Program-made: the position numbers and the translations under genes
Virus record (IMG/VR): IMGVR_UViG_2920580016_000002
Location: 26,285-90,284 of that record
Direction: 5' to 3' (one strand)
Length of the DNA: 64,000 bases
From: a virus
Taxonomy: Duplodnaviria; Caudoviricetes
The notes under the pieces: model-generated
Told to the model about the DNA's origin: nothing
The model's input: the letters and a program-made list of their open reading frames with translations, nothing else
Database searches by the model: none
Shown: positions 26,117 through 57,019 of the stretch, piece after piece
How the letters are laid out: each line of letters opens with the position of its first letter
Position numbering within the stretch: the first letter of the stretch is position 1

Positions 26117-27116
26117 TGGCGGCCTCCCGTTCGGCCTTGAGTTCGGCCCAGGTCTTGGGGGTGTCGTATTCGGTGACGTCGTCTTGGCTCAGGCCCCAGC
26201 TCTCGGCGTAGCCGTCGGCGGCCGGGTTGAAGTGGGTGTCGGCCTCCTCCTGCGCCTGGAGGCGCTCGGCCAGCGCGGCGCGGCGAGCCAGGAAGGAGAC
26301 CCAGGCGACGCGGCCCCTGAGGTGGAGGCTGGGGTCGCTGGCGTAGATGTCGATCATGGCCCGGATCTGGTCCGGCGTGACGCCTGCCTGCTTCCAGCCG
26401 TTCAGGCTCTTAGCCAAAGCCGGAAGATTGACCGTGCCAACCTTGGCGGCGAGGTCGTCGCTGGCGCGCATGGTCTTCTGGAAGTAGTGGGCGAGGCCCA
26501 GGCCGGTGTCTGGGTTGATGAGCCGGTCCTTGGGAGCCGGTACGACCTCGGTCATCGGGAAGAGGCCCAGGGCCTTAGCCGGGTCACGCTCCGAGTCGCT
26601 CTCCCGGTTAGGGAGACGGTCCTTGGACCGGCTTCCCTTCGCCGCTCGCGCGGAGCGCGAGTGTGTGTTCTTACTACCTTCAGTACTTGGTACAACTCCG
26701 TAATTACTAAGGCCCGGATTTCCCGGATCCGGGTTTCCCGTATCCGGCTTTTCAGGACGTCGGCTCTGACCTGCGGTTTCTTGGGTGGGTTCCACGGGGA
26801 ACTTGCCCTCGTTGTCGCAGAGCATCCTGTAGAGCTTGCGCGGGCGCTTGGTGGTCTCGTCGTACACGTTCTCGATGGCCATGTATCCGGCGTCTACCAG
26901 CTCCTTTAGTGCCGTGTAGATGGCGTCGCGACCCTCGACGAATCTGTTCATGAGGTCGCTCACCCGGCAGACCCAGTTGTCAGGGCGGGTCACGAGGTAG
27001 ACCAAGATGCCGTAGGCGCGGGCGGAGATGATCCCGTCTTCGAGCAGGTCGTTCGCGAGAACTGTGTAGCCGCTGCGGCGGCGGCCAATGCGGATCTCGG
27101 AGGAGGCGTCAGCCAC
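26103..27116 (-). CDS. Replication initiator (N-terminal HTH)
   Basis: YTVLAN......IS..A.G...YL...PD.W; GRDAI..AL.EL...GY; upstream of DnaC. Confidence 0.85.
   Translation of the reverse strand: MADASSEIRIGRRRSGYTVLANDLLEDGIISARAYGILVYLVTRPDNWVCRVSDLMNRFVEGRDAIYTALKELVDAGYMAIENVYDETTKRPRKLYRMLCDNEGKFPVEPTQETAGQSRRPEKPDTGNPDPGNPGLSNYGVVPSTEGSKNTHSRSARAAKGSRSKDRLPNRESDSERDPAKALGLFPMTEVVPAPKDRLINPDTGLGLAHYFQKTMRASDDLAAKVGTVNLPALAKSLNGWKQAGVTPDQIRAMIDIYASDPSLHLRGRVAWVSFLARRAALAERLQAQEEADTHFNPAADGYAESWGLSQDDVTEYDTPKTWAELKAEREAANAAH
26666..26753. repeat. Three 15-bp iteron-like repeats plus AT-rich tract; candidate origin
   Basis: Minus strand GAAAAGCCGGATACG, GGAAACCCGGATCCG, GGAAATCCGGGCCTT (26709-26753) then AT-rich 26666-26710. 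Confidence 0.65.
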
Positions 27117-54462: not shown

Positions 54463-56155
54463 TTAGAATTTGTTTTCCGGATTCTGGCGTTCAGGCGTCT
54501 TAGCGCCGTATGCCTGTGTCACGAGTTCGGTCATCAATGCTTCTTCGGCACCTGCCATGACTGCCGGTTGCCCGATAGCCGTGGGAGGCGTGTTGCCCGC
54601 AGTATCCGAATTCGTGGTCCCAGTGAGCGGGGCCGGGGCACCGTCACCCGTAGGTGACATCCCCGTCATTTGGAGAATAGCAGAAGCGATTTGCGCAGTA
54701 ATAAGGTCCAGGGCTCCCTGTTCCTTAGCGTCGCGCACCTGCTCTTCAAACAGCTCTTGCAACTTCTCGTCGGCGAATTCCTCGCCCATATCCTTGAGAG
54801 CGCCGCGCTTGGACTCCAAGCCAAGGCCCATACGGAGCTGGATTTCGTTGAGCTTGATGAGGTTGTCCACCGGCAGCGGCGGAGGCCACTCACAAGCCGT
54901 CTGGTAAACGAGCGGGTCGCGAGGGTCAATGACCAACGGCTGACCGTCCTGGATGATGCCGTCGGTGTCCGGGTCGTACTTCAGAGTTTCAGGCTCGAAG
55001 AGAAACAATGTCCTCAAGATCAGCTCGTTGATACGCCGAAGACCCTGCGTGTACTGCCGCTTTTTTGCGTTGTATCTCTGCATCATCGGGAACATTTGCA
55101 GAGCGAGGGCAACGCCGGAGGTATTGGAGATCGGCTGGGCCTGACCCAAGGAACTCTCTGGGACGCCCATCATCTCATGCATGGCGCGCTTTAGCGTCTC
55201 CATCCATTGGAGAGGCCATTGCAGATCTACGCCGTTTTCGAGGTTGAAGACCTTGGCGTCCGGCGGCAAGCCACCCCAGATCTTCCGCGCGCCCTTCTCC
55301 AGGTTGTTCACGCGAGCGCCAGTGATCACCGTGACAGGTGCCGAGTGGTAATTGATGATGTCACAGATGGCTACGGCAAGCTCGTTGTACTGCTGGTTCA
55401 GGGGGATGATGTCCTCGATGTCCGACAGCCCCCACGGCGATCCCGAGACGGAAACATTGGGGATGTGGACGATCGGGATGACACCCAGAGGGTTCTTCCG
55501 CCGGTTGATGAGCTGGTCATCCACCCACTCTTCTATAAGGTCCTCGGTGATGATCTCCTGGTAGGTGAAGACCTTCCTGGTCCCATCATTCGTGGTGGCC
55601 CAGAATTTGTAGCGAAGGCGGAAGCGCACGAGCCTCTCGCGGTCGTGCGGATGCCATTCTGGGAAGCAATGCGCCGCGTTGAGCGGAAGCACACGCACAC
55701 GACCCGCGTGCCAATTCCGGGCACGATCGACGTACGGCTTCTCGTACGCGATCTTCACGAAGCAGTCACCGCTTACCGAGCCGTTCTCGCCCATCTCGGC
55801 CAGCACGGTCGGCTTGTCGTTGTCCACCTCCCACACGCGGTTCAAAAGCGCGGGAATGATGTGTTCGTACTGCTTGGCAGACGTGAAGTGGACGCCACGG
55901 GAGAACGTGAAGTCGTTTACGAATCGGGTAAGCGCCCGAACGTAATTGAAGGTAAGCTGCGGCTCACCATATTCTCGACGGCTAGCCCAATGCCAGCCGA
56001 GATAGAAGGCCCAGTTCCGCGCATAAGTAGCGGTTGAGACGCGGACCGCTCACCTCCCATTCCTGGTCCGACAGTTCGACAAGACCAAGCGGGGAGATTG
56101 ACACGGTCAGCCCGCTAGCCTGCTGGCTCGGACTGTAAAAATTGAAGCCGCTCAA
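54463..56155 (-). pseudogene. Portal protein (SPP1-like), split by a 4-nt shift at 56024-56029; recoded gene or pseudogene
   Basis: Frame 1: TTG 56155 to TAG 55982 (57 aa); portal body is in the +1 frame from TAT 56025, with no start codon until TTG 55845. Confidence 0.85.
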
Positions 56156-56158
56156 CCT

Positions 56159-56238
56159 GGCATCACCTCCTCACGCAAATAGCCCGAATTGCTCACACAA
56201 TTCAGGCTATTTGAGTTGATGTGAAGAGTTGTAATGCC
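56159..56238 (-). promoter_or_regulatory. 80-nt hairpin sequestering portal SD GAGGAGGTGA
   Basis: GGCATTAC/GTGATGCC, CTCTTCAC/GTGAGGAG, AAATAGCCTGAATTG/CAATTCGGGCTATTT; G-U pairs work only on the coding strand. Confidence 0.8.
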
Positions 56239-56780
56239 TAACCGAGCGCGACCAGCGGAACGCGATGGTCGAGCTTCATTCCCGCGAAATCGAGGTAGGG
56301 CGGAAGCGCCACCTTAGTGCCAAGGACGGACGAATACACATCGCCCGACCCGTACCGTTCGTCCCAGACGTAAGGCTGTACGGCAGGGATCTGCACTGCC
56401 ATGGGGTCCGTGAACTCCACCATCAGCCAGGCCGTCCACTCACTGGAGCGTGCGGGGAGAGTACGGGGGAAGTCCATGTAGGTCCAGCCAGCTCCCTCCG
56501 TGTTGAGCGTGACCCCGTAGGAGACCCCGAGTGGAAGGAGCTGTGCATCCCCCGCCTCATTCTCCGGCGTGCCGTAGACGGCAGCTCGAACGCGGCCCTT
56601 GACATTGGTCTTGCGTACCAAGGCGATTGCCGCCCCACGAACGTCCTGACCAGCGGGCACCTGCATGCGAATGGCCCAGGTGCTAAGGAACTCGGGGTCC
56701 ATGACGGCGGCGTTGGTGGCCCAGGACGGCGCGCTCTGCACCGGATACCTGTAGCCGACTCCGACTGGAGTATCAGGCAA
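56238..56780 (-). CDS. Hypothetical protein (possible virion beta-sandwich)
   Basis: SD GAGG before TTG 56780. Confidence 0.7.
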   Translation of the reverse strand: MPDTPVGVGYRYPVQSAPSWATNAAVMDPEFLSTWAIRMQVPAGQDVRGAAIALVRKTNVKGRVRAAVYGTPENEAGDAQLLPLGVSYGVTLNTEGAGWTYMDFPRTLPARSSEWTAWLMVEFTDPMAVQIPAVQPYVWDERYGSGDVYSSVLGTKVALPPYLDFAGMKLDHRVPLVALG

Positions 56781-56809: not shown

Positions 56810-57019
56810 TCAGGCGGAGCGGGCGATGGCCGCGTTGCCCCACATCATCGTCTCTTCGAGATGAGTGATCGCCAGAGCCTTCTCCCGGCTTTCCGGGAGA
56901 AGCTCGTTCAGCGACCCGGCCAGATTCCGGCAGAGGCGGCGGATGGTCTCGTGGGCCACCACCGCCTTCTCATCCGGCTTGTGGTAGTTGAAGCGGTTGT
57001 CGAGATCGCCGGGCGTCAT
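56810..57019 (-). CDS. Acb2/Tad1-like hairpin-domain protein (candidate immune-signal sponge)
   Basis: RFNYHKP...L...L.ELLPESREKALAITHLEETMMWGNAAIAR. Confidence 0.8.
   Translation of the reverse strand: MTPGDLDNRFNYHKPDEKAVVAHETIRRLCRNLAGSLNELLPESREKALAITHLEETMMWGNAAIARSA

Follow-up and report, generated by a model that had tools for sequence, protein, structure and literature searches.

A probable UUA-triggered four-nucleotide translational bypass in the portal gene of a BRock-like prophage, and comparable coding gaps in related portal genes

To our knowledge, very few natural cases of translational bypassing have been described: gene 60 of phage T4 and its homologues, the byps of yeast mitochondria and the candidate case of the phiHau3 terminase. 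In T4 gene 60, a 50-nucleotide (nt) gap and a UAG stop codon occur together with a stem-loop at the take-off site, a signal in the nascent peptide and linkage to the homing endonuclease mobE. Frameshifting of the prfB type depends on the ability of the P-site tRNA to pair again in the +1 frame. Here, we analyse a prophage portal gene that is split between two reading frames at TAC-TTA-T; it lies in a 64,000-nt stretch of viral DNA (positions 26,285 to 90,284 of IMG/VR record IMGVR_UViG_2920580016_000002), the whole of which is referred to below as the window. Comparison with related genes makes it probable that this portal is expressed by a UUA-triggered bypass of four nucleotides, from UAC to UAU, giving a protein of 562 amino acids (aa).

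A UUA-mediated bypass was proposed for the large terminase of phiHau3 by Smith et al. (2013, J Bacteriol 195:4924; as cited in PMC10732093). Antonov et al. (2023) tested this proposal and obtained the full-length product in S. coelicolor, and the junction peptide was identified by mass spectrometry in E. coli with UAA replacing UUA (PMC10732093). Of 100 terminase genes only three were affected, and the sensing of bldA tRNA and development is the published hypothesis for phiHau3 (PMC10732093). Besides phiHau3, whose terminase gene has two 10-nt gaps, the terminase cases are those of the StrepC.1 and S. catenulae prophages. The byps of Magnusiomyces capitatus mitochondria are inserts of 27–55 nt that are apparently mobile (Lang et al., 2014; as cited in PMC5009743), and the hops over stop codons and hungry codons in E. 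coli (Weiss et al., 1987; Gallant and Lindsley; as cited in PMC5009743) are of low efficiency and involve synthetic or overexpressed genes. A 2016 review regards natural bypassing as rare and records no natural in-frame stop-hop (PMC5009743). Full-text literature searches returned no report of bypassing in a portal gene.

The elements of the portal gene in the window are as follows.

56166–56172, minus strand: Shine–Dalgarno sequence GAGGAGG, 10 nt ahead of the start codon, read from the sequence.
56155–56153, minus strand: portal start codon TTG, opening frame 0 (57 codons in all).
56027–56155, minus strand: portal codons 1–43 in frame 0, from the TTG start to the take-off codon, with the conserved N-terminus MSGFNFYSPSQQASGL..ISPLGLVELSDQEWEVSGPRLNRY.
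56027–56029, minus strand: take-off codon TAC (Tyr43), read from the sequence; the tRNA-Tyr anticodon is GTA only.
56024–56026, minus strand: blocking codon TTA (A site), the sole TTA of the portal reading frames.
56023–56025, minus strand: landing triplet TAT (Tyr), 4 nt past take-off and sharing the last two bases of TTA.
56023–56026, minus strand: coding gap TTAT, four bases that are missing from every uninterrupted homologue in DNA alignments.
54463–56022, minus strand: portal body of 519 codons and a stop codon, resuming at GCG (Ala), identified by translation and by PF05133 and phrog_64 matches.
55982–55984, minus strand: TAG terminating the 57-aa product of normal TTA decoding, located by translation.
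56050–56052, minus strand: TGA closing the body frame upstream, located by translation.

Frame 0 reads MSGFNFYSPSQQASGLTVSISPLGLVELSDQEWEVSGPRLNR-TAC-TTA-TGC... and ends at TAG 55984–55982 after 57 codons. The frame of the portal body is +1 relative to the N-terminal frame and reads TAT-GCG-CGG-AAC-TGG at the junction (Y-A-R-N-W-A-F-Y-L-G). It is open from TGA 56052–56050 to 54463, and since this TGA closes it no start codon farther upstream in that frame could serve the body; the earliest possible start codon within it is TTG 55845, 60 codons past TAT. These positions are those given in a preliminary description made from the sequence alone, which placed the start at TTG 56155, the stop at 55982 after 57 aa and the continuation of the body at TAT 4 nt downstream, with no start codon for 60 codons. 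Its statement that one tRNA-Tyr reads both UAC and UAU agrees with the host genome, in which GTA is the only tRNA-Tyr anticodon, as does its emphasis on the rarity of UUA: TTA is the rarest leucine codon, with frequencies per 1000 codons of 0.54 (host) and 0.9 (prophage) as judged from crude open reading frame (ORF) calls, and tRNA-Leu(TAA) is encoded by a single gene in the host genome, on contig C8. The existing gene call in the window (P0004; 54463–55845, 457 aa) begins 68 codons late.

The body is an SPP1-type portal by profile matches (PF05133, expect value 2e-23; phrog_64, expect value 3e-38) and is 81–87% identical to the homologues P0005 and P0003, with P0005 at 81%. The N-terminal frame is 79–81% identical to the N-terminus of P0005, which is uninterrupted, and because the 57-codon frame matches the N-termini of homologues it is the true portal N-terminus. 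Uninterrupted homologues such as P0005 read MTAFNFYPPGQQASGL..ISPLGLVELSDQEWEIHGPRLNRYSRNWAFYLG in a single frame, with the junction GPRLNRY-S/A-R-NWAFYLG. In DNA alignments, the surplus of the window over these homologues is exactly 4 nt, NRY[TTAT]ARNW, and a frameshift-aware alignment places the insertion at consensus residue 43. The product of a hop would contain 43 + 519 = 562 residues, and P0005 likewise has 562. The closest relative, L001 from a Streptosporangium sp., differs from the window by 0.87 synonymous substitutions per site (dS) and is uninterrupted at the same site (AAC-AGG-TAC-GCA-AGA-AAT-TGG); its sequence there is identical to the hop junction GPRLNRYARNWAFY (LNRYARNW). L001 has ATG at the position of the window TTG, and the aligned portal codons of the window contain no in-frame TTA besides the blocking codon. 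The portal of L001 (L001:4793–6466) has been annotated from an upstream ATG in the wrong frame, as P0003, whose N-terminus is unrelated; many database portals that start M-(N/T/S)-R-Y may conceal comparable gaps.

In the mechanism that we propose, ribosomes would initiate at TTG 56155, translate 43 codons and pause, with UAC in the P site occupied by peptidyl-tRNA-Tyr and the A site presenting the very rare UUA. The tRNA on UAC would then unpair, the mRNA would slip by 4 nt and the same tRNA-Tyr (anticodon GUA) would re-pair with UAU. Decoding would restart at GCG and yield the 562-aa portal with the normal junction ...LNRY-ARNW..., while ribosomes that decode UUA instead would make a 57-aa dead-end peptide.

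The locus resembles phiHau3 in several respects. In both, a short block that is missing from homologues divides an essential late gene of an actinomycete phage between two frames; the block opens with UUA directly 3' of the take-off codon (CGC-TAC-TTA in the window); a cognate landing restores the conserved junction (TAC to TAT, with the product NRYARNW as in L001); and the host has a high guanine–cytosine (GC) content, very rare UUA and a single UUA-reading tRNA. It differs in that the gene encodes the portal and not the terminase, in a BRock-like prophage of about 113 kb in a Streptosporangiaceae host, in that the gap is only 4 nt long with a landing triplet that overlaps UUA, and in that relatives of the window use stop codons, AGA and ATA in the same design. 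The 5' stem-loop and internal Shine–Dalgarno signals proposed for phiHau3 were not convincingly found at the window site, where the sequence GGGAGG precedes the take-off codon by 23 nt and neither the local hairpin (z score of −1.9) nor the wider fold (z score of −0.2) is significant. As in T4 gene 60, a single protein would be made from two frames of a phage gene; none of the gene 60 features listed above was found at the window site, however, which has a 4-nt gap, a sense blocking codon, a nonsignificant hairpin and flanking ORFs without a nuclease domain. The ORFs upstream of gapped and ungapped portal genes gave no Pfam domain.

The recurrence of such sites was assessed in 183 related portal loci from genomes, IMG/VR and metagenomes, or 184 with the window. 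Each was aligned to the family consensus by a frameshift-aware dynamic program; the loci had been retrieved through peptide patterns, one of which lies inside the hot region described below, and true gap frequencies may be higher. Short gaps are carried by 21 of the 184 loci (window included) in 24 distinct designs of 4–25 nt, which are not all independent events. Their anatomy is common to all: a take-off codon is followed at once by a rare or stop codon, then by 0–19 bases and a landing triplet, and the conserved frame resumes past the gap without gain or loss of residues. All 24 have a blocking codon (TTA in 12, otherwise TAG, TGA, AGA or ATA) directly past the take-off codon, whereas this set plus TAA makes up 4.1% of all triplets in the same genes. 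The landing triplet is synonymous with the take-off codon in 19 of the 24, differing at most at the wobble base, against a background of 5.8%. The gaps are concentrated in one hot spot, residues 28–55, which holds 21 of them. Examples of the designs are as follows.

TTA gaps: GAG-TTA-CC-GAG; CTT-TTA-C-CTC; CAC-TTA-C-CAC; GAA-TTA-(16 nt)-GAA; in L018, GAG-TTA-T-GAG.
AGA gaps: CGA-AGA-CC-CGC; GAG-AGA-CCCGCCGGTC-GAG.
Stop-codon gaps: GAG-TAG-CTCCGCTT-GAG; TAT-TGA-A-TAC; TCT-TAG-CG-TCC; in L012, GAG-TAG-...-GAG.
ATA gap: TTT-ATA-GG-TTC.

The gap TAT-T-TAC of L049 (TAT-TTA-C, landing at TAC) is the exact mirror of TAC-T-TAT in the window and is located at a different Tyr codon of the gene. L001, which is continuous at the window site, has its own 4-nt gap 24 nt downstream (TTC-TAT-[TGAC]-CTG). 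The gaps are scattered on the tree and differ between sister lineages, as in the window and L001 or in L016 and the gapless L021 (93% nucleotide identity). The 25-nt gap of L017, at consensus residue 173, reads CGA-TTA-CCCCTCGGGGTGATCAAAC-CGC and contains an internal hairpin, with TGA in the resumed frame.

The portal body thus contains a minor hot spot in addition to the main one, comprising the L017 gap at residue 173 and, at residue 174 of L018 and L022, a 5-nt gap (CGA-TTA-GC) that has no matching landing triplet. Two loci carry in-frame gaps that contain a stop codon, at consensus residues 33 and 55, respectively: L132 at about positions 1590–1610 (TTC-TGA-CGA-TTT, with matched Phe codons and 9 nt for a single residue) and L063 (CAT-TAG-CTC). 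That of L132 may be a natural in-frame stop-hop. Only one frameshift of the deletion type was seen in the set: L019, a pilon-polished long-read assembly, lacks one C of a C run at consensus residue 169, most likely through an assembly error rather than recoding.

As controls, the terminase (51 loci) and capsid (80 loci) genes of the same phage family gave no bypass-type gap; a few events in the IMG/VR control loci proved to be alignment artefacts around large insertions. On the contig of the gapless portal L024, an insert of about 530 nt disrupts the major capsid gene close to its 5' end (L241:401–939), and this insert gives two matches to the group I intron family RF00028 (48.4 and 38.7 bits), both below the gathering score of 50.

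Pairs of gapped genes have ratios of nonsynonymous to synonymous substitution rates (dN/dS) of 0.03–0.1 at dS values of 0.8–1.0, on both sides of the gaps and between them; L010 and L022 carry three gaps each, two of them in common. These low ratios indicate that gapped genes are under strong purifying selection and that gaps are tolerated over long times. The choice of blocking codon tracks codon usage: 30 portal genes of 60–65% GC contain no in-frame TTA in about 17,000 codons, and TTA heads most of their gaps, while the gaps of two relatives of 41–44% GC, in which TTA is common (8–19 per gene), use TGA or TAG. In the first 55 codons dS is low compared with the rest of the gene (0.23 versus 0.8–1.7 for L010 and L022; 0.41 versus 1.0–1.2 for L011 and L012), and the identical gap CTT-TTA-C-CTC occurs in the distant lineages L006 (Actinomadura) and L010 (Streptomyces). 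Both observations hint that gapped 5' segments have spread between portal genes by recombination.

The series also invites comparison with other bypass systems. Like the byps, the portal gaps are short inserts in a conserved gene, several per gene in some cases (three each in L010 and L022), with a rare or unused sense codon as the A-site block and a relaxed match between take-off and landing; unlike the byps, they are bacterial and 4–25 nt long and cluster within a single 30-codon stretch of a single gene. With the E. coli stop-hops they share short matched-codon hops over a stop or starved codon without elaborate signals, from which they differ in being natural, recurrent and under selection.

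From the gap anatomy, its recurrence in relatives (24 analogous gaps, including the mirror image in L049), the purifying selection on gapped genes and the intact neighbouring genes, we infer that the hop probably occurs, at some efficiency and perhaps with some regulatory use. The core of the preliminary proposal, a hop from UAC to UAU over UUA, thus gains strong comparative support, and matched-codon or UUA sites, for which it had suggested searching the relatives, do recur there; the idea itself is not new, having been published for the phiHau3 terminase (PMC10732093).

Several points weigh against bypassing at this site. The exact TTAT gap is seen in one genome only and in none of the other portal carriers among 401 genomes searched within the host's family. 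The portal genes of five isolated BRock-like Streptomyces phages are uninterrupted, so that gapped portals are as yet unrecorded in plaque-forming phages. The take-off site lacks significant RNA structure, as described above. The landing triplet is not synonymous with the take-off codon in five of the 24 gaps, TAT-TGA-C of L001 included; in four of these the match is at codon positions 2 and 3 (TAT to GAC, TAT to AAC and CGA to AGC twice), and in L063 (CAT to CTC) it is at position 1 only. Either the landing rule is loose or some gapped copies are dead. The event counts come from our own alignment script and the set of blocking codons was fixed partly post hoc, but the codon enrichment is far too large for the latter to matter. 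Finally, a gap of 4 nt leaves a hop and a +1 frameshift with UAU in the A site differing by a single residue.

Such a programmed +1 frameshift, in which an abundant Tyr-tRNA would read the overlapping UAU while UUA stays unfilled in the A site (as in Ty3) and give a 563-aa portal with the junction NRYYARNW, is an unlikely explanation in our view. It has in its favour that +1 shifts are classically triggered by a hungry codon in the A site (review PMC5009743) and that gaps without a matching landing triplet (L001, L148 and L026) could operate in this way. A slow A-site codon as trigger is also what the window has in common with prfB (CUU-UGA-C) and yeast Ty3. Unlike in prfB, however, the P-site tRNA-Tyr on UAC cannot re-pair in the +1 frame, where UAC becomes ACU against the anticodon GUA. 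The frameshift product would be expected to contain an extra residue, and no homologue among the 184 has one at the window junction; over residues 8–298 of these homologues, in-frame insertions occur only in the variable loops at 142, 148 and 218 (L148, L051 and L054). At the longer gaps, +1 shifting would add 2–8 residues to the most conserved part of the protein, and in L017 the TGA in the resumed frame means that a simple +1 shift at its TTA cannot work and that a jump is needed. For phiHau3, the same argument together with mass-spectrometry data favoured bypass over frameshifting (PMC10732093).

Alternatively, a recent 4-nt insertion could have inactivated the gene, in which case the portal would be dead, no particles would be made and the hop-like anatomy would be a coincidence. 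Single lethal mutations are frequent in prophages, the exact gap is confined to one genome, the isolated lytic relatives are free of gaps, and some family gaps with a poor landing match may be dead copies. We nevertheless judge this to be improbable. By our estimate from codon frequencies, a random 4-nt insertion would create a take-off codon, a rare or stop codon and a synonymous landing while leaving the protein unchanged in roughly 1/1000 cases, or about 1/10,000 if the codon is to be TTA. The neighbouring virion genes also speak against decay. Counterparts in the window were found for 20 of the 23 genes of the L001 virion region (the other three give no match), with identities of 94% for the terminase, 96% for the capsid and 88% for the sheath; all 20 are intact in both the window and L001, with no frameshift and no stop, and the portal is the only split gene of the region. 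In the sister prophage L001, moreover, the same 30-codon stretch holds an independent gap of equal size, and the family-wide pattern and purifying selection show that such gaps are tolerated in the long term.

A sequencing or assembly error in a truly continuous portal gene, an alternative raised in the preliminary description, is very improbable. In its favour is the lost C of L019, which is typical of long-read error. The extra TTAT lies in nonrepetitive sequence and is not a change in homopolymer length; errors are not expected to create the rarest codon between matched Tyr triplets, and analogous gaps are present in assemblies from many projects and platforms. The footprint of a TA-duplicating transposon of the IS630/Tc1 type, also raised there, is extremely improbable: TA-CT-TA is readable as a TA duplication with 2 nt in between, but the family gaps have no common TA flanks or footprint (GAG-TTACC-GAG, CGA-AGACC-CGC and TTT-ATAGG-TTC), and the repeated triplets at these gaps are synonymous, differing at the wobble base and keeping register with the reading frame.

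The portal transcript has a further feature that may bear on its translation.

56159–56242, minus strand: portal 5' leader, from the stop codon of the upstream gene to the portal start, with a very stable stem-loop that pairs the Shine–Dalgarno region.

The leader has a minimum free energy of −45.5 kcal/mol (z score of −7.6; none of 200 shuffles was equally stable), and its fold pairs the Shine–Dalgarno region with the sequence just past the stop codon of the upstream gene. Alignment and folding show that L001 retains this fold despite changed bases. The hairpin may exert a second control on portal translation, by coupling or by occlusion. A bypass, acting in addition to a leader hairpin that masks the ribosome-binding site, would probably keep portal output low or make it depend on the supply of the UUA-reading tRNA.

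The preliminary description had gone further and proposed that full-length portal would be made when bldA tRNA is scarce and the 57-aa peptide when it is plentiful, a switch that would tie virion assembly to host development. This hypothetical part is somewhat weakened, at least as a strictly bldA-specific switch, because relatives use TAG, TGA, AGA or ATA at the same hot spot, because about 23 other crude prophage ORFs contain in-frame TTA (a count that it had suggested making) and also need the tRNA, and because the host is not a Streptomyces. The variation of blocking codons at the hot spot suggests that any slow codon would serve. Some regulatory use is nonetheless favoured by the distribution of the gaps, which occur frequently (12 of 23 loci) in prophages of cultured actinomycetes but in none of the five isolated phages. 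More tentatively, the first 55 or so portal codons of BRock-like temperate actinophages could be a hot spot for evolvable, possibly recombining bypass elements that use the slowest codon of the host (UUA, AGA, AUA or stop) to gate virion assembly on its translational state; UAC-UUA-U of the window would be the minimal 4-nt form, and the elements would include the first natural in-frame stop-hops (L132). We regard this wider picture as possible but doubtful as a whole.

The novelty lies in the gene, in the family of phage and host, in the minimal size of the gap and in the family-wide series in which stops, AGA and AUA replace UUA. The portal would be a second essential virion gene with phiHau3-like logic, in a different phage and host family. 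Among its relatives, 24 natural designs with different take-off codons, blocking codons, gap lengths and landing matches form a mutational series, which makes the rules of short hops testable with reporters, and the window provides a compact 4-nt model site. The series also bears on whether temperate actinophages sense host physiology through a rare tRNA. In practical terms, annotation pipelines call gapped portals truncated or broken, and intact prophages are consequently mis-scored as defective.

The window corresponds to C1:681234–745233 of a 12.4-Mb genome of 70.3% GC. It lies inside an island of about 113 kb and 63% GC (about C1:633000–748000) in a chromosome of 70–74% GC, and this island is a BRock-like myovirus-type prophage in a Streptosporangiaceae host. 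The portal was present in only three of the 401 genomes searched within this family. The nearest relatives of the portal bear the names Streptosporangium, Nonomuraea and Streptomyces. Contigs of 95–113 kb carry many of the relatives, and the isolated relatives are the Streptomyces phages BRock, pSt2308, GiJojo, Alone3 and LuckySocke, of about 113–116 kb. A screen of the whole prophage for further TTA-type gaps gave 30 loose candidates and no second bypass gap; the best of them, CAC-TTA-C-CAC at C1:672713, is a false positive, the real gene reading ACT-TAC in another frame. The portal is accompanied by genes for the large terminase, capsid and tail sheath and by a small gene that lies between those for the terminase and the portal.

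56810–57019, minus strand: 69-aa gene with an Acb2/Tad1 hairpin domain (PF24729, expect value 8e-21).

The product of this gene, which is also present in L001, is likely to be a sponge for cyclic-nucleotide defence signals, as judged from its domain match.

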